64,000 nt of DNA from Myxococcales bacterium (GCA_012744445.1 JAAYBZ010000138.1:845-64844); one strand, 5' to 3'. Positions 5,526 to 54,942 are shown, counted from the stretch's first letter. Translations and numbers: made by a program. Notes: a model not told the origin generated them from the sequence alone.

Positions 5526-6638
5526 TCACGCGCGCGAGGTGTCGCGCGTGACCACGCCACCCTGCACGTGGAAGTCCACGCGATCGCGCTCGAGCAAGAT
5601 GAACTCGGGGTGCGTGGTCGTGAGGAAGACCTGCCCGCCGAGGCGCGAGATGCGCTCGAAGAGCCGCCGACTGCGCGTGCGATCGAGCTCGCTCGAGACG
5701 TCGTCGAGCAGGAGGATCGGCACCATCCCGAGGCGCTCGGCCACGTAGTCGAGCTCGGCGATCTTCATCGAGAGCGCGAGCGCGCGGTGCTGCCCCTGGC
5801 TCGCGTGATGGCGCGCGCCCACCTCGCCGAAGCGGAGCTCGAGATCGTCGAGGTGAGGGCCATCGGCCGTGAAGCCGCGGGCCCGATCCACGGGCCACGC
5901 GGCCTCGAGCGCGCGCAGGATCGCGCCCTCGTCGCCCTCGACGCGCGGGGCGTAGCGGGCCTCGAGCCGGAGCACGTCCCCTACGACCTGCTGGAAGGCG
6001 GCCTCGATGCGCGGAGCGATCTCCGTGACGAGCGCGCGGCGGTGCTCGACGATGACGGCCCCGTGCCGGGCCAGGAGGACGTCGTAGGGGGCCACGGCCC
6101 GCCGATCGACCTCCACCTCCTTGAGGAGACGATTGCGGCTCCTGAGGGCCTTCTCGTAGGCCGCGAGGGCCTCCGCGTAGAGGGGGGCGGTGGGCTCGAG
6201 GAGCTCGTCGAGGTAGGCGCGGCGGATCTCGGCGCTCCCGGTCGAGAGCGAGAGGTGCCCCGGGTGGAAGATCACGACCGGCAGGCGCTTGCGGAGGACG
6301 GCGGCGCTCTTCGGGCGCTTCCCGTCGAGGGTCACGCGCCGGGTGCGGCCCCGACCGAGCGCGACCGCGACCACCTGCGAGGTGTGCTCCGCGGCCACGC
6401 GCATCTTGAGCACGGCGTCGCCTGCGCCTAGCGCGATCACGTCGTCGGTCTTGGCGTTCCGGAAGCTCCGGAGCGTGCCGAGGAGGTAGATCGCCTCGAG
6501 CAGGTTGCTCTTGCCGGCTCCGTTCTCCCCGTGGATGACGTTGAAGTGGGGACCGGGCTCGACGTCGAGCCCTTCGAGGTTACGGAAGCCGTGCGTGGCG
6601 ATGCGCTCGATGCGAAGCGCCCGCGGGCCTTCGGCCAC
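5526..6638 (-). CDS. recF: DNA replication and repair protein RecF
   Basis: N-terminal block FRNLEGLDVEPGPHFNVIHGENGAGKSNLLEAI, SMC-like Walker A/B and signature. Lies directly downstream of dnaN. Confidence 0.95.
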   Translation of the reverse strand: MAEGPRALRIERIATHGFRNLEGLDVEPGPHFNVIHGENGAGKSNLLEAIYLLGTLRSFRNAKTDDVIALGAGDAVLKMRVAAEHTSQVVAVALGRGRTRRVTLDGKRPKSAAVLRKRLPVVIFHPGHLSLSTGSAEIRRAYLDELLEPTAPLYAEALAAYEKALRSRNRLLKEVEVDRRAVAPYDVLLARHGAVIVEHRRALVTEIAPRIEAAFQQVVGDVLRLEARYAPRVEGDEGAILRALEAAWPVDRARGFTADGPHLDDLELRFGEVGARHHASQGQHRALALSMKIAELDYVAERLGMVPILLLDDVSSELDRTRSRRLFERISRLGGQVFLTTTHPEFILLERDRVDFHVQGGVVTRDTSRA

Positions 6639-6641
6639 GGA

Positions 6642-7766
6642 TCAGATCCGCATGGGCATGACCACGCCCACGAAGTCGACGTCGTCGCCGACCGGACGGA
6701 TCACGCCGGGGTCGAGCTCGCCCGAGAGCTCGAGCGAGACCTCGTCGTGGGAGAGGGCCTGGAGCGCGTCGAGGAGGTAGCGCGCGTTGAAGCCGATGGA
6801 GATCGAGTCGCCCGAGTAGTCGACGTCGACCTCCTCGAAGCCCTCGCCCACCTCGGGGTTCTGGCTCTGCACGCGGATGAGGCCCGGCTCGATGCAGAGC
6901 TGCACGCCGCCGCTCTTGTCGTGCGCGACGAGGCTGATGCGCCGGAGCGCCTCGACGAGGTTCGCGCGGCTCGCGACGATCTTCCGCGCGTGCTGCTTGG
7001 GGATGACCTTCTCGTAGGGCGGGAACTGCTCCTCCGCGAGCTTCACGCTGAGGAACTGTCCGTCGTGGCGGAAGAAGGCGCTGCCCGCGGCCTTGGCGAT
7101 GCCGATGACGGGCGCGCCGCCCTTGTCGAGCGCGCGGACGTCGTCGAGGAGCTTGCGGAGCTCGGTGACACCCTTGTGCGGGATCAGCATCGAGAAGTCG
7201 AAGCTCGCGCCCGGGACCTTGCGCTCGGCCTTGGAGAGGCGGTGGCCGTCGGTCGTGACCATGCGCACGATCTCGCCCTTGCCCTCGAAGAGCGTGCCCG
7301 AGAGGTGCGGGCGCGTGTCGTCCGACGACATGGAGTAGTGCGTGAGCGTGATGAGCTCGACGAGGCGATCGGCCGGGACCTCCGCGAAGGTCGCGTCGAC
7401 CGGCATGGGCAGCGGCGGGAAGTCGTGCCCCGGGAAGCCCGGCACCTTGTACTGCACCTTGCCGCAGCGGATGGTCAGACCCCGGTTCTCGCCGACCGTG
7501 ATGGAGACCTCGCCCTGCGGGAGCGCCCGCACGATGTCGTGCAGCATCTTCGCGGAGACGGCGATCTGCCCTTCACGCACGACCTTGGCGGGCACCGTGG
7601 AGGTGACGCCCTGGTAGAGGTCGGTCGCGCTGAGCCGGAGCGCCTCGTCGCCCTGCGTGGCGAGCAAGACGTTGGAGAGGATGGGCATCGAGCCCTTGCG
7701 CTCCGCGACGCCGTGAGTGCGGGAGAGACCTCGCAGAAGGTCTCGCTTGTCGATGCTGAGCTCCAT
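6642..7766 (-). CDS. dnaN: DNA polymerase III beta sliding clamp
   Basis: 374 aa. N-terminus MELSIDKRDLLRGL...PILSNVLLAT, with the three-domain clamp pattern and C-terminal VVMPMRI. Confidence 0.95.
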   Translation of the reverse strand: MELSIDKRDLLRGLSRTHGVAERKGSMPILSNVLLATQGDEALRLSATDLYQGVTSTVPAKVVREGQIAVSAKMLHDIVRALPQGEVSITVGENRGLTIRCGKVQYKVPGFPGHDFPPLPMPVDATFAEVPADRLVELITLTHYSMSSDDTRPHLSGTLFEGKGEIVRMVTTDGHRLSKAERKVPGASFDFSMLIPHKGVTELRKLLDDVRALDKGGAPVIGIAKAAGSAFFRHDGQFLSVKLAEEQFPPYEKVIPKQHARKIVASRANLVEALRRISLVAHDKSGGVQLCIEPGLIRVQSQNPEVGEGFEEVDVDYSGDSISIGFNARYLLDALQALSHDEVSLELSGELDPGVIRPVGDDVDFVGVVMPMRI

Positions 7767-7786
7767 GGGTCCAGGCTTTAGGGGTC

Positions 7787-43110: not shown

Positions 43111-44490
43111 ATGCAGGTCCTGTGGAAGACGACGCTCGAATCACTTCGGGAGCACATTTCGGAGGAGACGTTCCAGTCGCTCATTCGCCCGATCGAGCTC
43201 GCGTCGCTCGAGGGAAAGACCGCCCTCTTCCGCGTTCCCAACACCTTTCACGGTGAGTGGGTGACGGCGAACCTCGGGGACGTCATCTCGGACGCCCTCT
43301 GCGCGGCGGCCGAGGATCTCGGCCGTGAGATCCCCCGCCCCCTCGAGATCGCCTTCGAGGTCGACGACTCCCTCATGGACCGCTTCGAGATCGAGGAGAC
43401 CCCGGCGGAGCCCGCGAAGCCCGCGCGCGCCTCGGTCGCGCCCTCGGCCACCCCCTCCGCCGCCCCGCGGCTCAACGCCAAGTATTCGTTCGACAATTTC
43501 ATCGTCGGGCCCTCCAACCAGCTCGCCCACGCCGCGAGCGTGGGGGTGGCCAAGGCGCCGGGATCACGCATGAACCCCCTCGTCATCTGCGGCGAGACGG
43601 GCCTCGGCAAGACCCACCTCACCAACGCCATCGGCCGCGCCATCTACGAGGCCAACCCGAAGGCGCGCATCATCTACCTCTCGGCCGAGGAGTTCACCAA
43701 CGAGTTCCTCCTCGCCCTCCGCAACCAGCGGGCCGACGAGTTCCATCAGCGCTTCCGCCGCGAGTGCGACGTCCTCCTCATGGACGACATCCAGTTCCTC
43801 GCCGAACGCGAACGCACCCAAGAGGTGTTCTTCCACACCTTCAACACCCTCTACCAAGAGGGCAAACAGATCGTCATCACCTCCGACGTCTACCCCCAGC
43901 ACATCCCCGGCATGCAGGAGCGGCTCGTCAGCCGCTTCGAGGCCGGCATGGTGGCCGACGTCCAGCCGCCCGAGCTCGACACCCGCGTCGCCATCCTCCA
44001 GAAGAAGGCCGAGGAGGAGGGTATCGACCTCGATCCAGCCGTCGCCGACTTCCTCGCGCGCGTCGTCAAGAACAACGTGCGCGAGCTCGAGGGCATCCTC
44101 ATCCGCCTCGCCGTCAAGGCCGAGCTCCTCGGGCGCCGCATCGACATGGAGCTCGCCCGGGACGCGACCCGCTCCCTCATCGTCGAGGCCAACAACACGG
44201 CCACCACGGTCGAGGACATCCAGAAGGCGGTCTGCGCGTACTTCGGGATCCGCCTGAGCGACCTCAAGGGCAAGCGTCGGCACCGCGCGGTGAGCTTCCC
44301 CCGCATGGTCGCCATGTACCTCGCGCGGCAGCGGCTCGGCACGAGCTTCCCCGAGCTCGGCGACCGCTTCGGCGGCAAGGACCACACCACGGTGATGAAC
44401 GCGGTCCGCAAGATCGACCGCCTCGTCGAGGAGAGCGACGAGCAGGTCGTCGCCAGCATCGAGGCCATCGAGCGCCGCCTCGGCTTCTAG
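43111..44490 (+). CDS. dnaA: chromosomal replication initiator DnaA
   Basis: 459 aa. YSFDNFIVGPSNQLAHAA, Walker A GETGLGKTHL, LLMDDIQFL, sensor and box VII regions, and domain IV GGKDHTTVMNA. Confidence 0.95.
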   Translation: MQVLWKTTLESLREHISEETFQSLIRPIELASLEGKTALFRVPNTFHGEWVTANLGDVISDALCAAAEDLGREIPRPLEIAFEVDDSLMDRFEIEETPAEPAKPARASVAPSATPSAAPRLNAKYSFDNFIVGPSNQLAHAASVGVAKAPGSRMNPLVICGETGLGKTHLTNAIGRAIYEANPKARIIYLSAEEFTNEFLLALRNQRADEFHQRFRRECDVLLMDDIQFLAERERTQEVFFHTFNTLYQEGKQIVITSDVYPQHIPGMQERLVSRFEAGMVADVQPPELDTRVAILQKKAEEEGIDLDPAVADFLARVVKNNVRELEGILIRLAVKAELLGRRIDMELARDATRSLIVEANNTATTVEDIQKAVCAYFGIRLSDLKGKRRHRAVSFPRMVAMYLARQRLGTSFPELGDRFGGKDHTTVMNAVRKIDRLVEESDEQVVASIEAIERRLGF

Positions 44491-44517
44491 TTTTCGAAGT
44501 CCCCCCGCTTCGAGCCC

Positions 44518-48803: not shown

Positions 48804-48929
48804 GCGCGGTGTCCGTTCGCGAGGTCCCACGCCCGGGAGCTGCGCAGAGGCTTGCAACGCGCGCGTCGAACACCGACATTGGGACGAGGCGGGGGGGAGC
48901 CCGCCGCAACACGCGAAAGGACGACGTCC

Positions 48930-49220
48930 ATGTCGAGCGAGGGGTATCACGAACCAATCGAAGAGCTCAGCGACGCGACGCGCGACATGCACCGCGCGAT
49001 CGTCTCGCTCATGGAGGAGCTCGAGGCGATCGACTGGTACAACCAGCGCGTCGACGCCTGCAAGGATCAGGAGCTCAGGGCCATCCTCGTCCACAACCGC
49101 GACGAGGAGAAGGAGCACGCGGCGATGGTCCTCGAGTGGATCCGGCGGCGCGACTCGACGTTCGCGAAGGAGCTCGAGGAGAAGCTCTTCACCACCGGCC
49201 CCATCGTGCACGGCCACTGA
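48930..49220 (+). CDS. encapsulated-ferritin (EncFtn)-family ferritin-like protein lacking a C-terminal targeting peptide
   Basis: AAAGGA precedes ATG 48930. HEPIEELSD...HRAIVSLMEELEAIDWYNQRVDA...ILVHNRDEEKEHAAMVLEWIRRRD...LFTTGPI is colinear with Rhodospirillum rubrum EncFtn as remembered. Confidence 0.75.
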   Translation: MSSEGYHEPIEELSDATRDMHRAIVSLMEELEAIDWYNQRVDACKDQELRAILVHNRDEEKEHAAMVLEWIRRRDSTFAKELEEKLFTTGPIVHGH

Positions 49221-49490: not shown

Positions 49491-50024
49491 GTGAAGACCA
49501 TCTTTTCGGGTGCTGTCCCCATGACCACTCTCCGGACCTCGCGGAGCGCGTCCATCGACGTCCTCGAGATCGACGAGGATCACGTCAAGGGCGCGTACAA
49601 GAACGTGCTCCTCATGGTCTGGGCCAAGCGGACCCTAGCCGACGCGTATCGTCGGGCGATCAGCATCGTCCACGAGATGCGCGTCGATCACCCCCAGGGG
49701 GTATGTCTCTTCCAGGTCGTCGAGGACACGGCCGTGCCGCCGGATACCGACGCGCGCGAGGCGTTCACCGATCTCCTCAAGACCGAGGGCGTGAAGCAGT
49801 TCTCCGTCGTCTTCGAGGCGAGCGGCTTCAAGGCCGCGGCCGTGCGCGCCATCGTGCAGGCGGGGCAGGCGCTCGTCCGGCCCAAGTTCCCGCACTCGGT
49901 GCATCAGTCGGTCGCGGCGTCGGCGGCGTGGCACGCGGGCCTCTCCCGTGAGCACTCGGCGGCCGAGCTCCAGGAGGCCGTCCAGCTCCTGCGCGAGCTG
50001 CACCGCTCGCGCTACCCGGTCTGA
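49491..50024 (+). CDS. hypothetical protein
   Basis: 177-aa ORF with G/C-rich third positions, followed by a clean terminator. No family recognised. The start may be the internal ATG (MTTLRTS). Confidence 0.45.
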   Translation: MKTIFSGAVPMTTLRTSRSASIDVLEIDEDHVKGAYKNVLLMVWAKRTLADAYRRAISIVHEMRVDHPQGVCLFQVVEDTAVPPDTDAREAFTDLLKTEGVKQFSVVFEASGFKAAAVRAIVQAGQALVRPKFPHSVHQSVAASAAWHAGLSREHSAAELQEAVQLLRELHRSRYPV

Positions 50025-50048: not shown

Positions 50049-50085
50049 AAAAAGGCGCCGCCTCCTCTGAGGTCGGCGCCTTTTT
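50049..50085. terminator. bidirectional intrinsic terminator between convergent genes
   Basis: AAAAA-GGCGCCG, a 13-nt loop, then CGGCGCC-TTTTT. Confidence 0.6.
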
Positions 50086-50109
50086 CGTGCGCGTGAGCGA
50101 CCGCGCCGC

Positions 50110-50772
50110 TCAGGCGTTGGCCGCGCTCTGCTTCGCGAAGGCCACGTCGGCCATGCGCAGGAACGAGCCGAAGATGCGGCCGACCATCGGGAGCGCTCGC
50201 TCGCGGACGTCGTCCGGCAGGACCTCCTCGTCGCGCTCTTCGTCCTCGAACATCTCGTGGCCGGACTCGGCCTCGGCGTGGACGGGGCCGAAGTACTTGA
50301 GCTTTCCGTCGTCGCCCGACTCGGCGGCCTGACGGCAGACGCGCGCGATGAACGCGCCCGCGGCCGCCTCGAGCGCCTCCACGAAGACGATCCGCAGGCG
50401 ATCGTCGTCGACGCGGAAGATCTCGGAAGCGATCGCGAGCGATTCCTCGCGGACCACGTCGAGCGCCGGATCGTAGAGCCAGCGGACGTCGCGTACGCGC
50501 TCGCCGAAGATCAGGTCGAGGTCGTCGAGGAACCACTCCTGGTGCCCGCGATCCTCGCGCGCGTGCGTCGCGAGCGTCGCGCGGATCTCGGGATCCTTGG
50601 CGAGCGAGGCGTTGATGCGCGTGATGTCCTGGAAGGTCATCACCCACGGCGCGAGCACCTCCGCGAACGCGAGCGCACGCGAGAGGTCGGGGTTCGGCTT
50701 CATCTCGGTGAACAGGGGGTGGGAAACCAGCTCACCGAGGTGCTTCTGGATGCACTCGTTGACGATCTTCAT
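50110..50772 (-). CDS. heme-oxygenase-like fold protein (TenA/PqqC/HDO-type, possible di-iron enzyme)
   Basis: All-helical 220-aa protein with carboxylate/His pairs on helices (HAREDRGHQEW, EALEAAAG, HAEAESGHEMF). The family call is tentative. Confidence 0.45.
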   Translation of the reverse strand: MKIVNECIQKHLGELVSHPLFTEMKPNPDLSRALAFAEVLAPWVMTFQDITRINASLAKDPEIRATLATHAREDRGHQEWFLDDLDLIFGERVRDVRWLYDPALDVVREESLAIASEIFRVDDDRLRIVFVEALEAAAGAFIARVCRQAAESGDDGKLKYFGPVHAEAESGHEMFEDEERDEEVLPDDVRERALPMVGRIFGSFLRMADVAFAKQSAANA

Positions 50773-50799
50773 CTCGAATCCGGGGAGAGGTGGGTGCGC

Positions 50800-51909
50800 T
50801 CAGACGATCGCGGAGGGCGCGCTCGAATCACGCCGCGTCCGCTCGATCCTTCGGCGATAGAGCATGGGCGCGAGGTAGGCCGTGGTGCGGATCGCCCTCG
50901 GGCCAGGCCGGAAGGACGCGTAGGTGATGACGCCCGTGCACTCCCTGAGCGGGCCAGGCGCGATGGCCCTCACGGCGTCGTGGAGCATCGTCGCCTCGGT
51001 GGCGTCCATCTTGGACATGATGCGCGCGAGGACGGCTTCGTCGTTGGGGCAGTAGCAGCGGATGGGCACGTGCAGCGTCCCCACCGGCGCGTCGCTCTTC
51101 CCGTCGAAGGCGAAGCAGACCAGGATCGGGCGCTCGTTGAACGGGCCGAGGTGCCCCGTGAGCCCGTAGAGGAGCTCGGAGGCGAGGCCCGGGTCGAAGT
51201 TGCGCGTCGGCTCGACGAGGCGCTCCACGGCGCGCGCGGAGTCGGAGCGCGCGACGTAGATCTTCACGCGCGCCGTCTCGGTCGCCGCGAGGTCGAGCGA
51301 GAAGTAGCGGAGCGCGTCGCCGTCGTCGCCGACGAGCCGTTCGACGAGCGCGGCTTCCTTTTCGAGGCCGAGCTCGACGAGCGCCTCACGGACGAGCGAG
51401 GGCGCGCGCGCCGCCCCGTGGATCCGCGGGTTGACGTACGCCTTGAAGAGCGACTCGCCCGTCGACTCGAGCACGGCGGCGTGCCAGAGGGCGAAGACCG
51501 CGTCGTCGCCCTCCTCGGGGGCGAAGAGCGGCGCGATCCGGGCGAAGCGTTCGAGGCTCGCGCCTTCGTGCTGCGCGAGCGCGTCGTTCACCGCGAGGCC
51601 CGCCTTCCAATTGGACGCGAGCGTGAACGGTGCCTCCTGGGGCTCGACGAGCATGCGGAGCTCGGTGCGTCCGTCGTTGAACGCCGCCGAGAGCTCGAAG
51701 GGCGATCCGTCGTCGCAGATGTCGTTGGGCCAAGGCGGACGGTCCCCGAGCGGCAGCTCGGCCCAAGGACCGCTCAGCCGCTCGAAGACGCGCACGGCGT
51801 GCGCCACCGACTCCTCCGAGGCGTGGATCGCACGCCCCAGCGCCGTCGCGAACTCCCCCAAGGCCGCGCGAAAGGAGCGCGACCCACCCTCATCCATCAC
51901 GCGTGCCAT
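50800..51909 (-). CDS. DMATS-type (ABBA) aromatic prenyltransferase
   Basis: PWPNDICDDGSPFELS, LFKAYVNP, RYFSLDLAATETARVKIYV and ILVCFAFDG resemble tryptophan dimethylallyltransferase-family blocks. The start lies 1 nt after the stop of the upstream gene. Confidence 0.65.
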   Translation of the reverse strand: MARVMDEGGSRSFRAALGEFATALGRAIHASEESVAHAVRVFERLSGPWAELPLGDRPPWPNDICDDGSPFELSAAFNDGRTELRMLVEPQEAPFTLASNWKAGLAVNDALAQHEGASLERFARIAPLFAPEEGDDAVFALWHAAVLESTGESLFKAYVNPRIHGAARAPSLVREALVELGLEKEAALVERLVGDDGDALRYFSLDLAATETARVKIYVARSDSARAVERLVEPTRNFDPGLASELLYGLTGHLGPFNERPILVCFAFDGKSDAPVGTLHVPIRCYCPNDEAVLARIMSKMDATEATMLHDAVRAIAPGPLRECTGVITYASFRPGPRAIRTTAYLAPMLYRRRIERTRRDSSAPSAIV

Positions 51910-51910
51910 C

Positions 51911-53359
51911 TCAGATGTCGATTCCCGGAGTGAGGATCTTCTTCTTGTCGTAGCGCGCCTTGAGCTTGTTGTGCTCGGGCAGCTGCGGGCCGAGGTGGTG
52001 GACCCAGTCGACCCGAGCGAAGTCGAGCGAGCCGATCGGATAGCGATACCCGCCGTGGAGCCGCGCCTTGTCGAAGAGCCGGCGGTTGCGCCGCATCATG
52101 CGATCGGCGTACGCGGCGTCGTACCCCGGCGTGGGCGCCGCCGTGAGGATGTCGAAGAGGAAGATCCACTCGTCCTGCGGCAAGCGGAGCGAAGGCCGCT
52201 TGAAGCGCGAGCGGCGCTGCGGGAAGAGCAGGAAGAAGCCGGCCTCGCCGACGTCCTCGGGCGTGAGCGTGGGCATGACCTCGCGGACGTAGTGCTCGAC
52301 GGTGCGGCCGGGGAGGAAGACGTCGAACCAGGGGTGCATGACGTCGTCCCACATCCCCGCGGCCTTGAAGCCGTCGACCGCCGCGTCGACGCGGAGCGCG
52401 TACTCGAGGAACGTGGTGTCGGCGACCTGCATCATCGGCGCCACGTGCTCGAGGTCACGGAGGAGGTGCGCCTGGTTGGGCGGCTGCGCCGGGTCGTAGT
52501 ACTTCACGGCGTTGAGCACGCTCATGAAGCCGGGGCCCATCGGGCTCGGCACCCACATGTTGAAGACGTCGTCGAATTCGTTCCTCCGGAGGAGCTTCCA
52601 GAGGTCGCGGAACATCGACTGATCGTCGAGGTAGATCAGCTGGAAATTCAGCGCGCGCGGGAGCGCGGGGACGAGCTCGACCACGGCGCGCGTGATGATG
52701 CCGTATTGGCCGAGGCCGCCGAGAACGCCGTTGAAGAGATCGCGGTTCTTGGTGTCGGAGCAGCGCACGATGTCGCCGTTGCCGGTGACGACCTCGAGCT
52801 CGTAGACGTGGTCGATCTGCGCGCCGCGATCGAAGCTCGAGGAGATGCCGCCCATCGAGAGCGTGCCGCCGAAGGAGAGGCCCGTGAAGCCCGTGAGGAC
52901 GGGCGGCGTGAGGCCCTGCGGCACCGTGAGGTGGAGGAGATCCTTCCACGTGGCGCCGGCGTCGACGTCGGCCTCGCCCGCGTCGATCGAGTGGATCGCG
53001 TCGAGCGTGCCCATGTCGATCATGAGCGTGGCGAGCGAATGACCGTGCGTGGAGTGCGCCTGTCCGCGCGCCGCGACGCAGATGCGGTTGTCGGCGCAGT
53101 AGCGCACCATCTTCTGGATGTCGGCGACCGAAGCCGGGCGGAGCACCGCGTTGGGCGTGCCGTAGACGATGTTGCCGGCGTCGGTGGAGTACGCCTCGAG
53201 GCTCGAGGGATCGGTGACGAGCTCACCCTCCAGCGGCGGGATCGGCTTGTTCTTCTTGGCCTCCGCGACGGGGATCCAGCGCCCGCCGATCGGATCGAAC
53301 CCGGCGATGGCGGTGGCGGCGGCCACACCCGAGAGGAACTGACGTCGGTTCAATGCCAT
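51911..53359 (-). CDS. Tat-signal FAD-linked oxidase, cytokinin dehydrogenase (CKX)-like
   Basis: From ATG 53359: MALNRRQFLSGVAAATAIAG (twin-arginine). FAD PCMH domain (VLRPASVADIQKMV...AARGQAHSTHG). CKX-like C-terminal domain (MHPWFDVFLPG, KARYDKKKILTPG). Confidence 0.7.
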   Translation of the reverse strand: MALNRRQFLSGVAAATAIAGFDPIGGRWIPVAEAKKNKPIPPLEGELVTDPSSLEAYSTDAGNIVYGTPNAVLRPASVADIQKMVRYCADNRICVAARGQAHSTHGHSLATLMIDMGTLDAIHSIDAGEADVDAGATWKDLLHLTVPQGLTPPVLTGFTGLSFGGTLSMGGISSSFDRGAQIDHVYELEVVTGNGDIVRCSDTKNRDLFNGVLGGLGQYGIITRAVVELVPALPRALNFQLIYLDDQSMFRDLWKLLRRNEFDDVFNMWVPSPMGPGFMSVLNAVKYYDPAQPPNQAHLLRDLEHVAPMMQVADTTFLEYALRVDAAVDGFKAAGMWDDVMHPWFDVFLPGRTVEHYVREVMPTLTPEDVGEAGFFLLFPQRRSRFKRPSLRLPQDEWIFLFDILTAAPTPGYDAAYADRMMRRNRRLFDKARLHGGYRYPIGSLDFARVDWVHHLGPQLPEHNKLKARYDKKKILTPGIDI

Positions 53360-53417
53360 GTGCTCCCTCAACTTCTCATCACTCCACGGCGATGGTGAGA
53401 TCCCGACTTGTTTTGCG

Positions 53418-53445
53418 GAGAATTCACCCCGAAAGGTGAGTTCTC
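53418..53445. promoter_or_regulatory. 11-bp inverted repeat upstream of the prenyltransferase operon
   Basis: GAGAATTCACC, 6-nt spacer, GGTGAGTTCTC (10 of 11 complementary). It lies 59-86 nt upstream of ATG 53359. Confidence 0.35.
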
Positions 53446-53790
53446 GACTCATTCAAGAGTAAGCCGCGACGTCGAGCGATCACAAGAAAATTTCGAGACG
53501 AGAGATCGGATCCGTGCGCGGATGTAGTGACGTCGGAGCAGCGTTCACACGCACGCGCACGCAGTGCTCCGCGCGCACCGACGAAGCTCACCCCAAGGAG
53601 TGATCGTGCGCGCGAATGGCGACGCGATCGACGCGCCATCACGCGGGGAGACGACGTGCGAGCGCGAGCGCGCGACGGAGGGCCGCCGCGCTCGCGTGCG
53701 TCATCGGCGCGCGCTTGGGCGTGGCTCAGCTCGAGACGGAAGCGCCACCGCCGCCCGCGAAGGGGCGGTTGGTTCGAGGCGCGTGGTGCG

Positions 53791-54942
53791 TCAGCGCACG
53801 CCGCTCTTCTTGCGCGCGATCACCATCTTCATGATGTTCGCCGTCCCGTCGCCGATCTGGAGGCCGAGCACGTCGCGCAGGCGCTGCTCGAAGGGCAGCT
53901 CGCGGCTGTAGCCCGCGTGACCGTGCGCGAGGAGACAGTGGTGCACGACGTCGAAGGCGAGCTTCGGCGCCCACCACTTGGCCATCGCGGCGAGCTCGGT
54001 GTGCTCGCGACCGCGATCCTTCATGGAGAGCGCCTTGAGGCAGATGAGGCGCGCTGCCTCCACGTAGGTCTCGTCCTCGGCGAGCGGGAAGCTCACGCCC
54101 TGGAAGCTCGCGAGCTTCTTGCCGAAGGCCTCGCGCTCGGCGACGTACTGCCAGGTCTCGCGCAGGCTCTCGCGCGCGATCGCGAGGCATTGCAGCCCGA
54201 TGAGCGCGCGGCTGAAGTCGAAGCCCTGCATCACCTGGGTGAAGCCCTTGTTCTCCGCGCCGAGGAGGTGGTCCTTGGGCACGCGCACGTTGTCGAAGAA
54301 GATCGAGCCGCGCCCGATGCAGTGCTCGCCGAGATCGTCGAAGCGCGTGCGTGTGATGCCGGGGAGGTCCATCGGCACGCAGAACGCGCTCACGCCGTGC
54401 GCGCGCGACTCGACGGTGCCCGTGCGGGCGAAGACCACGGCGACGTCGCAGAGATCGCCGAAGGAGATGCTCGTCTTCTCGCCGTTGAGGACGTAGTAGT
54501 CGCCGTCACGCTTCGCCTCGAGGCGGATGGCGGCGGCGTCGCTCCCGTAGTCGGGCTCGGTGAGCGCGAGCGCGATGAGCGCCTCGCCGCTGCAGATCCG
54601 AGGCAGCCAGTGGCGCTTGATCTCCTCGTTCGCGTTCTCCACGAGGACGTGCGCGTTGAGCGAGCCGAGGAGCTGCACGTAGGCCACGTTGAAGTCGCCG
54701 GCGGCGATCTCCTCCATGACGAGGCCGCTCGTGACGAAGTCGAGGCCCGCGCCGCCGTACTCCTCGGGGATCTCCACGCAGATCAGCCCGAGCTCGCCCA
54801 TCCGGCGGACGAGCCCGCGATCGAGCACGCGGCTCTTGTCGCGCTCGCGATAACCGGGGGCGAGCGCCTCCTTGGCGAAGGCCGCGGCCGTCCTGACGAT
54901 CTCTTCCTGTTCGGGGCTGAGCGTGAAGTCCATGGCGGACAA
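53791..54942 (-). CDS. acyl-CoA dehydrogenase
   Basis: 383 aa. Contains LTEPDYGSDA, YYVLNGEKTSIS and the C-terminal QIGDGTANIMK region. Confidence 0.9.
   Translation of the reverse strand: MSAMDFTLSPEQEEIVRTAAAFAKEALAPGYRERDKSRVLDRGLVRRMGELGLICVEIPEEYGGAGLDFVTSGLVMEEIAAGDFNVAYVQLLGSLNAHVLVENANEEIKRHWLPRICSGEALIALALTEPDYGSDAAAIRLEAKRDGDYYVLNGEKTSISFGDLCDVAVVFARTGTVESRAHGVSAFCVPMDLPGITRTRFDDLGEHCIGRGSIFFDNVRVPKDHLLGAENKGFTQVMQGFDFSRALIGLQCLAIARESLRETWQYVAEREAFGKKLASFQGVSFPLAEDETYVEAARLICLKALSMKDRGREHTELAAMAKWWAPKLAFDVVHHCLLAHGHAGYSRELPFEQRLRDVLGLQIGDGTANIMKMVIARKKSGVR

Follow-up and report, generated by a model that had tools for sequence, protein, structure and literature searches.

Which product could be made by an operon that joins a flavoprotein with the fold of cytokinin oxidases/dehydrogenases (CKX), a DMATS-type aromatic prenyltransferase and a diiron oxidase of the heme-oxygenase-like kind (HDO)? 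This question is raised by three minus-strand genes, named genes 1, 2 and 3 hereafter, in a stretch of 64,000 nucleotides from a Myxococcales bacterium (GCA_012744445.1 JAAYBZ010000138.1:845-64844), the whole of which is called the window below. A preliminary description of this DNA had proposed that they form a minimal biosynthetic or signalling cassette, devoted to some prenylated aromatic metabolite. Our analysis backs this proposal with gene fusions of the Rosetta-stone type and with synteny in distant relatives, and finds the cassette to be a recurrent module, often accompanied by a conserved fourth gene (49491-50024). The three genes probably encode a short pathway leading from L-tryptophan and dimethylallyl diphosphate (DMAPP) to a small, lipophilic and oxidised prenyl-indole.

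Three enzyme families in one operon

The three minus-strand reading frames were confirmed at the positions given in Table 1, together with the two short gaps that separate them. The frame of gene 1 extends from 51911 up to 53452. Within it, a start at 53359, with GGGAG 4 nt 5' of the ATG, yields a protein of 482 amino acids beginning with MALNRRQFLSG, and this form was also chosen by independent gene callers. A 1-nt gap divides the TGA that ends gene 1 at 51911 from the gene 2 ATG at 51909, and a gap of 27 nt divides the gene 2 stop (50800) from the gene 3 ATG (50772). For gene 2, the gene callers favour an ATG at 51897, which would give 365 amino acids. All three family calls made earlier, namely CKX-like, DMATS-type and heme-oxygenase-like diiron, were right. 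Among the profiles proposed for checking them, PF11991, PF01565 and PF09265 matched as expected, whereas PF14518 gave no match to gene 3.

Judged by its homology to solved structures, from which its fold is predicted, gene 2 is a bacterial DMATS enzyme of the ABBA superfamily. It matches PF11991 (5.1e-15; 56.1 bits against a gathering threshold of 25) and aligns nearly full-length with the solved bacterial DMATS structures 6ZRX and 6ZRY (5.5e-38; residues 42-357 for 6ZRX). Further solved relatives are MpnD (4YL7), PriB, TleC, CymD and a 6-DMATS (7W8U) that we take to be IptA, the nearest ones including tryptophan prenyltransferases as well as indolactam prenyltransferases. Gene 2 scores below the cut-off of the NCBIfam subfamily TIGR03429 (96.6 bits against 163.85) and is therefore a divergent member of the DMATS family, and its closest homologues are mostly prenyltransferase-HDO fusions. 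Its residues 66-74, DDGSPFELS, align with DDHTPVEFS of 6ZRX and correspond to the conserved motif DDxxPxE(L/F)S, the Glu of which binds the indole N-H in DMATS enzymes. No signal peptide was found in gene 2.

Gene 3 had no match in Pfam or NCBIfam. PF14518 (Haem_oxygenas_2) failed to match it at E <= 0.01 and, when run on ten of its relatives, matched seven below the cut-off and two not at all, only P0090 passing. The sole sequence matches in the PDB were three AetD constructs (4.5e-7), with about 20% identity. The AlphaFold2 model (predicted local distance difference test, pLDDT, 88.5; predicted template modelling score, pTM, 0.86) forms a heme-oxygenase-like helical bundle, in agreement with the diiron bundle that had been anticipated. 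When this model was compared with the PDB by Foldseek, the top 21 matches were all AetD chains (TM 0.81-0.85), other HDOs, TenA and CADD reaching TM values of 0.70 at most. In AetD, the ligands of Fe1 are H79, H172 and E176, those of Fe2 are D76, E140, E176 and H179, and H72 is nearby (PMC10654658). The equivalents of H72/D76/H79/E140/H172/E176/H179 in gene 3 are H70, D74, H77, E135, H165, E169 and H172, giving a predicted Fe1 set of H77/H165/E169 and a predicted Fe2 set of D74/E135/E169/H172, plus H70. Across 88 family members, conservation reaches 92-100% at each of these positions, and that of D74 is always Asp or Glu.

The substrate contacts of AetD also have counterparts in gene 3. In AetD, Y167 is hydrogen-bonded to the tryptophan carboxylate while F44 and I146 clamp the indole (PMC10654658); the predicted equivalents are Y160, W43 and I142, at which the 88 members carry Y/F, W/F and F/L/I, respectively. 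AetD converts 5,7-dibromotryptophan to the indole-3-carbonitrile and glycolate, with indole-3-carbaldehyde, glyoxylate and ammonia as shunt products (PMC11611611), and SktA converts tryptophan or 5-bromotryptophan to the skatole, cyanide and bicarbonate (PMC11869266). The two enzymes differ at second-sphere positions, M139/A142 in AetD versus T139/T142 in SktA (PMC13108848). Gene 3 is AetD-like there, with Leu134/Ala137. Since the second of these positions varies across the family, the one-carbon group left on the indole cannot be read from the sequence. From alignment and model together, gene 3 is classed as an AetD/SktA-type diiron oxidase, for which an activity on the tryptophan side chain is predicted.

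Gene 1 combines PF01565 (FAD_binding_4; 1.5e-25) with PF09265 (Cytokin-bind; 2.9e-22), and its best PDB matches are plant CKXs (5.5e-53). The His of the CKX motif GHS links flavin adenine dinucleotide (FAD) covalently; this motif aligns with AHS in gene 1, which puts His102 at the flavin-linking position. In an alignment with five plant CKX structures, the motif WTDYL faces LTGFT in gene 1, so that Gly157 replaces the catalytic Asp. This Asp, Asp169 in ZmCKX1 and Asp162 in AtCKX7, polarises N10 of the substrate (PMC10610038, PMC9340367). Five of the seven other CKX-like proteins of the gene 1 clade (L002, L090, L091, L092 and L095) also have Gly at the position of Gly157, and only L094 and P0088 retain the Asp. 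Because of this replacement, gene 1 is classed, on sequence grounds, as a CKX-fold protein that is not a cytokinin oxidase/dehydrogenase (EC 1.5.99.12). A twin-arginine translocation (Tat) signal, NRRQFLSGVAAATAIAGF, covers approximately residues 1-33 (53359-53261), where the twin arginine is followed by a hydrophobic region (TIGR01409, 18.0 bits against a cut-off of 16.7). The twin-arginine motif is kept in all six stand-alone CKX-like proteins of the prenyltransferase-associated clade, i.e., those of the window, L002, L090, L091, L092 and L095. This conservation backs the earlier placement of one step in the periplasm, to which gene 1 is predicted to be exported.

The three genes form a recurrent module

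An exhaustive search with a hidden Markov model (HMM) found 708 representative clusters related to gene 3, 190 of them at E <= 1e-30. A word-indexed search (8 relatives) and an 88-sequence profile (17 relatives) had suggested a tiny family, an impression discarded as an artefact of sensitivity in view of these 708. The best 150 of the 708 clusters were then scanned with the window's own three proteins, and fusions were found in 36 of the 150: 29 prenyltransferase-HDO proteins, 1 HDO-prenyltransferase, 4 HDO-CKX-like and 2 triple fusions. One of the latter, P0088 (1071 amino acids), reads CKX-prenyltransferase-HDO, i.e., the operon's own order. Among the fusion proteins are some from a metagenome-assembled genome of Myxococcota and from isolates such as Hyalangium rubrum (WP_321545901.1).

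Co-occurrence in other genomes, the lack of which the preliminary description had named as one ground for refuting its proposal, was found as well: all three functions are adjacent at seven independent loci, in the arrangements listed in Table 1. Because of these fusions and repeated gene neighbourhoods, the three proteins are regarded as one unit. The trio is a functional module and, more generally, a widely recurring uncharacterised enzyme module rather than an oddity of the source genome. This defines a large uncharacterised branch of the AetD family whose members are fused or operon-linked to DMATS enzymes and CKX-fold flavoproteins. Besides, the triple fusions, which occur naturally as single chains, would make handy biocatalysts.

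A rough neighbour-joining tree built from the HDO domains places the window HDO outside the clade of C-terminally fused HDOs and groups it with the HDO-prenyltransferase fusion of Hyalangium. The association with prenyltransferases spans two HDO clades, with opposite fusion orders. Between the window and L090, the CKX-like proteins are 65% and the prenyltransferases 54% identical, the HDOs 33%, and the latter fall in different clades. These values suggest that the HDO partner may have been exchanged while the module was kept.

Other tryptophan-related genes flank the module in some relatives. Tryptophanase-like Beta_elim_lyase genes are present in L091 (13450-14883) and L092 (11960-13369), and the flank of L091 also holds a FAD_binding_3 monooxygenase. 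In L095 (7863-10258), the flanking genes encode a kynureninase-like protein and an outer-membrane channel of the Toluene_X (FadL-type) family. Within the 64-kb window, no homologue was found of the tryptophanase, FAD monooxygenase, flavin monooxygenase (FMO) or kynurenine monooxygenase genes that accompany the module elsewhere, nor of the kynureninase-like and Toluene_X genes of L095.

HDOs with other partners

Relatives of gene 3 also occur beside flavoproteins of other types. A second clade of CKX-like proteins, which has neither the flavin-linking His nor a Tat signal and carries P(L/Y)N in place of TDY, is encoded directly 3' of an HDO in about 65 genomes of the genera Legionella, Tatlockia and Fluoribacter and in Reyranella (L011-L088), as well as in HDO-CKX fusions. 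The genome scan behind this count used patterns from an 8-sequence alignment and is biased to the unfused, Legionella-like clade. No prenyltransferase was found beside these second-clade pairs. In L. pneumophila subsp. fraseri, for example, an HDO gene is followed by a CKX-like gene (L023, 8001-10080), and a FAD_binding_3 gene just upstream (6435-7784) may be kynurenine-monooxygenase-like, Pfam giving only the generic domain. From its annotation, the L. pneumophila member appears to be lpg0894, a 'cytokinin oxidase' that is down-regulated in a letS mutant (PMC5928044). Our literature search found no functional study of this Legionella protein or of its HDO neighbour. L003 and cyanobacterial homologues have an SktC-like FMO after the HDO.

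A proposed pathway and its alternatives

From the three family assignments we infer a route whose substrate, order of steps, one-carbon group and flavoprotein reaction are set out here as a proposal. In the cytoplasm, the DMATS enzyme would prenylate the indole ring of L-tryptophan. The AetD-type HDO would then bind the amino-acid end of the prenyl-tryptophan on Fe1 and, with O2, trim the alanyl side chain to a one-carbon group at C3, which could be a nitrile, an aldehyde or a methyl group. The neutral product would leave the cytoplasm, and the Tat-exported flavoprotein would complete the pathway in the periplasm with a two-electron dehydrogenation by hydride abstraction. Its target could be the benzylic/allylic C1' of a C-linked dimethylallyl group, giving a diene, or the 3-methyl group, giving an alcohol or an aldehyde through a methylene-indolenine, as in enzymes of the vanillyl-alcohol oxidase (VAO)/p-cresol methylhydroxylase (PCMH) type. 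A prenyl group attached through carbon, and not through nitrogen, would be in keeping with the missing amine-polarising Asp. The order prenyltransferase, HDO, flavoprotein is proposed because DMATS enzymes and these HDOs both need the intact amino-acid end of tryptophan. The aet and skt pathways likewise decorate the ring before the HDO acts and use a flavoenzyme after it (PMC11869266). The three enzymes would thereby offer access to prenylated skatoles, or to indole nitriles or aldehydes with a prenyl group.

Several observations weigh against this pathway. DMATS enzymes can take other aromatic substrates, and gene 3 is only about 20% identical to AetD and belongs to an uncharacterised branch, in which the second of the second-sphere positions varies (Thr in 36, Ala in 30 and Ser in 10 of the 88 members). 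The L093 locus has the prenyltransferase, the HDO and a small protein with no CKX-like gene within about 6 kb on each side. The triple fusions have no signal peptide, which would make the flavin step cytoplasmic in those organisms, and the CKX-like proteins of the second clade say little on the reaction of gene 1.

A candidate for the product is offered by the indiacens, which carry a 4-(3-methylbuta-1,3-dienyl) side chain. The indiacens of the myxobacteria Sandaracinus amylolyticus and S. defensii have a 3-formylindole core, and indiacen B has a dienyl chloride chain built at C-4 (PMC9042329, PMC4660955, PMC9306752). Each of these structural features maps onto one enzyme of the module, which is a candidate explanation for bacterial prenyl-indole-3-carbaldehydes such as the indiacens. 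The searched literature held no gene assignment for indiacens and nothing relevant linking Sandaracinus with dimethylallyl. A more specific reading, which we hold only tentatively and consider rather doubtful as a whole, would make the module the missing route to myxobacterial antibiotics of the indiacen type: an AetD-type HDO would have evolved to yield a C3 aldehyde or methyl group directly from prenyl-tryptophan, and a CKX-fold enzyme, repurposed from N-prenyl cleavage and now without the amine-polarising Asp, would dehydrogenate the C-linked prenyl group or the skatole methyl group in the periplasm. In the same reading, the Legionella pair of an HDO and a 'cytokinin oxidase' (lpg0894 and its upstream gene) would make an unrecognised tryptophan-derived indole metabolite. 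Through the module, bacterial 'cytokinin oxidase' homologues, the Legionella-wide one among them, gain their first functional context.

The substrate could also be an aromatic amino acid other than tryptophan, such as tyrosine or phenylalanine, in which case the same module logic would give a prenylated benzonitrile, benzaldehyde or cresol-type product. Indeed, the DMATS superfamily includes tyrosine prenyltransferases, AetD crystal structures exist with L-Tyr and L-Phe bound (8ZVG, 8ZVH), and the pockets are not identical, gene 3 having Trp43 where AetD has Phe44. We nevertheless consider such a substrate unlikely, since the top solved relatives of gene 2 all act on tryptophan or indole substrates, the indole-clamp and carboxylate-binding residues are conserved in gene 3, and the two HDOs of this subfamily that have been characterised act on tryptophan (PMC11611611, PMC11869266). 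The flavoprotein, for its part, might not be the last step of the pathway and might act on an external or periplasmic substrate, for instance in precursor supply or recycling, in self-protection, or as a detoxifying oxidase for the indole product or by-products. This would suit its separation in space from the cytoplasmic prenyltransferase and HDO, the L093 locus that has no CKX-like gene nearby, and the catabolic role of plant CKXs (PMC9340367). It is an improbable arrangement all the same, as the HDO-CKX and triple fusions put the flavin domain on the HDO polypeptide, which argues for consecutive steps on one metabolite, and as gene 1 is translationally coupled to the prenyltransferase gene across the 1-nt gap.

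A cytokinin system like that of Rhodococcus fas, in which a genuine cytokinin dehydrogenase would cleave an N-prenylated purine or amine produced beforehand, has very little to recommend it. Gene 1 does have the PF09265 cytokinin-binding domain, and plant CKXs as its best PDB matches, but the catalytic Asp is Gly157 in the window and Gly in five of the seven other CKX-like proteins of the clade (PMC10610038, PMC9340367), gene 2 is a DMATS enzyme and no adenylate isopentenyltransferase, and the third partner is a tryptophan-type HDO. This reading was rejected on account of the missing Asp and the class of the prenyltransferase. The oxidative cleavage of an N-prenyl chain, which the preliminary description had cited as the reaction of CKX enzymes, is unlikely for the same two reasons, the replacement by Gly157 and the lack of an adenylate isopentenyltransferase. 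Finally, the probability that the three genes are neighbours by chance, with unrelated functions, is close to nil. Gene 3 has no obvious ribosome-binding site as read from the sequence, but the fusions among the best family representatives (36/150) effectively refute a chance arrangement, and the synteny recurs at loci where the proteins are 30-65% identical to those of the window. The pathway from tryptophan to an oxidised prenyl-indole remains the reading that we prefer.

Boundaries of the operon and its surroundings

Table 1. Features of the operon region in the window, and gene arrangements at the related loci.
Feature	Position	Strand	Basis or remark
Gene 1, predicted Tat-exported CKX-fold flavoprotein, 482 aa	51911-53359	-	PF01565, PF09265, TIGR01409
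Gene 2, aromatic prenyltransferase of DMATS (tryptophan) type, 369 aa	50800-51909	-	PF11991, solved DMATS homologues
Gene 3, predicted AetD/SktA-type heme-oxygenase-like diiron oxidase, 220 aa	50110-50772	-	AetD alignment, AlphaFold2 model
Bidirectional intrinsic terminator	~50049-50085	both	AAAAAGGCGCCG...CGGCGCCTTTTT; common to the operon and the convergent gene 49491-50024
Upstream spacer, presumed promoter and 5' leader	53360-53790	-	431 bp, GC profile, inverted repeats
Conserved accessory gene, 177 aa	49491-50024	+	convergent with the operon, recurrent neighbour
L002			three genes, order as in the window; proteins 64-75% identical to the window's
L090			Tat-CKX, then prenyltransferase-HDO fusion
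L091, L092			prenyltransferase-HDO fusion, then Tat-CKX
L094			CKX, prenyltransferase, HDO
L095			Tat-CKX, then fused prenyltransferase/HDO protein
JGI contig			prenyltransferase, HDO-containing protein, CKX-like gene nearby

The terminator described earlier was recovered as a stable fold on both strands. It lies between the stop of gene 3 (50110) and that of the convergent gene (50024). Its folding energies are -32.3 (minus strand) and -35.1 kcal/mol (plus strand), and a U-run comes after the hairpin on both strands. The corresponding z-scores are -4.7 and -4.6, none of 200 shuffles being equally stable. A simple terminator scanner with a loop limit of 8 nt did not report this hairpin, because the stem GGCGCCG/CGGCGCC encloses, as counted by eye, a loop of 12 nt.

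At the other end, the low-GC spacer that had been put at 430 bp measures 431 bp, with a GC content of 0.62-0.66 versus about 0.68-0.73 nearby. It contains an inverted repeat, GTGATCGCTCGAC-N22-GTCGAGAACTCAC, with arms at 53436-53448 and 53471-53483, and an adjoining element CTCACC-N6-GGTGA at 53424-53440. In an alignment with the upstream regions of L002 and L090, both are recognisable 5' of the L002 orthologue. These elements may serve as an operator or form a hairpin in the 5' leader. The promoter scan of the operon region found no sigma-70 consensus promoter, and no riboswitch or other RNA family of Rfam reached the gathering threshold in the operon region or in the whole window.

The accessory gene encodes a protein of 177 amino acids whose relatives recur beside the module. 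A 71% identical protein is encoded by a neighbouring gene in L002, a 48% identical relative lies directly 3' of the prenyltransferase-HDO fusion in L089/L090, in the same direction, and in L093 a 45% identical copy separates the prenyltransferase gene from the HDO gene. The protein belongs to no significant Pfam, NCBIfam or PADLOC family, and its single-sequence AlphaFold2 model (pLDDT 52) was unusable. By hhalign, no relationship was found between it and the weakly SpoIIAA-like proteins of about 140 amino acids that lie beside the module in L091 and L092. The accessory protein is probably a fourth component, e.g., a regulator, a carrier or an immunity protein; PADLOC gave no defence-system match for any of the four proteins.

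Further out, the gene 5' of the operon (53791-54942, minus strand) scores above the equivalog cut-off of cyclohexanecarboxyl-CoA dehydrogenase (TIGR03207, 596 bits against 575). It lies beyond the 431-bp spacer, and other loci do not keep it beside the module. On the other side, an EncFtn gene for an encapsulin-associated ferritin-like protein lies at 48852-49220 on the plus strand (TIGR04535, 129.9 bits against a cut-off of 125), and no encapsulin shell family appears in the Pfam listing of the surrounding 20 kb. A dnaA gene was mapped from L004 (16273-17652) to about 43121-44500 (plus strand) of the window. As it is about 6 kb from the operon, the cassette is probably close to a replication origin and would stand amid housekeeping-type genes, not inside a large biosynthetic cluster. 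No tRNA genes were found in the 64-kb window. The metagenome-assembled genome (MAG) from which it comes, of a Myxococcales bacterium (source name GXY23_10730), has 100% identity matches on >160 metagenome contigs.

Comparison with known systems

PCMH is a periplasmic enzyme that oxidises an aromatic methyl group through a quinone-methide to the alcohol and the aldehyde. It belongs, like vanillyl-alcohol oxidase, to the flavoprotein superfamily of gene 1, and by analogy both may serve as models for a step from 3-methylindole to indole-3-carbaldehyde. They differ from gene 1 in the C-terminal domain, and no cytochrome subunit was seen at the window operon.

Bacterial tryptophan prenyltransferases that make prenyl-indoles with a truncated side chain offer another parallel. 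The IptA locus reportedly has a 6-DMATS and gives 6-dimethylallylindole-3-carbaldehyde, and SCO7467/SCO7468 are said to pair a 5-DMATS with a flavin monooxygenase, the product being 5-dimethylallylindole-3-acetonitrile. Points in common with the module are the 6-DMATS structure 7W8U among the solved relatives of gene 2 and the tryptophanase-like genes beside the module in L091 and L092. The difference is that these loci employ a flavin monooxygenase or a tryptophanase in place of a diiron HDO, and that they are not known to involve a CKX-like partner.

With plant CKXs (ZmCKX1, AtCKX7) and the fas system of Rhodococcus fascians, gene 1 shares the two-domain fold of FAD_binding_4 and Cytokin-bind, a His where the flavin is linked in CKXs, and a pocket of a kind evolved for a dimethylallyl group. 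Unlike them, it has Gly for the catalytic Asp, is predicted to be Tat-exported, and is partnered by a DMATS enzyme and an HDO rather than by an isopentenyltransferase. The fas system, which the preliminary description had found loosely echoed, gives way as the closest precedent to the tryptophan pathways of AetD and SktA, the window operon having no adenylate isopentenyltransferase and Gly157 for the Asp.

AetD and SktA are the only characterised enzymes of the AetD family, a review of March 2026 listing no others (PMC13108848), and in our literature search no paper connected HDOs of this type with DMATS enzymes or other prenyltransferases. AetD (PDB 8JI2, 8TWN; PMC10654658, PMC11611611) is the closest solved structure to gene 3 (TM 0.84) and its only sequence match in the PDB. 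Its metal ligands, Tyr167 and indole clamp all have equivalents in gene 3, and M139/A142 correspond to an AetD-like Leu/Ala pair. The aet cluster, in contrast, uses halogenases, a tryptophanase and a P450, and has neither a prenyltransferase nor a CKX-like enzyme.

The skt cluster of Nostoc punctiforme NIES-2108 encodes the skatole synthase SktA, the tryptophan halogenase SktB and the flavin monooxygenase SktC (PMC11869266). It resembles the window operon in its three-gene layout, in which a tryptophan ring-decorating enzyme and a side-chain-truncating HDO are combined with a flavoenzyme whose proposed role is the oxidation of the resulting indole, and the ligand set of the two HDOs is identical. 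Where skt has a halogenase, the window has a DMATS enzyme, and where skt has a cytoplasmic FMO, the window has a CKX-fold oxidase of the VAO superfamily with a predicted Tat signal. Besides, the window HDO is distant and falls in a separate clade, and the host is a myxobacterium instead of a cyanobacterium. By analogy, the window operon would thus follow the tryptophan logic of aet and skt, with another decorating enzyme and another flavoenzyme.

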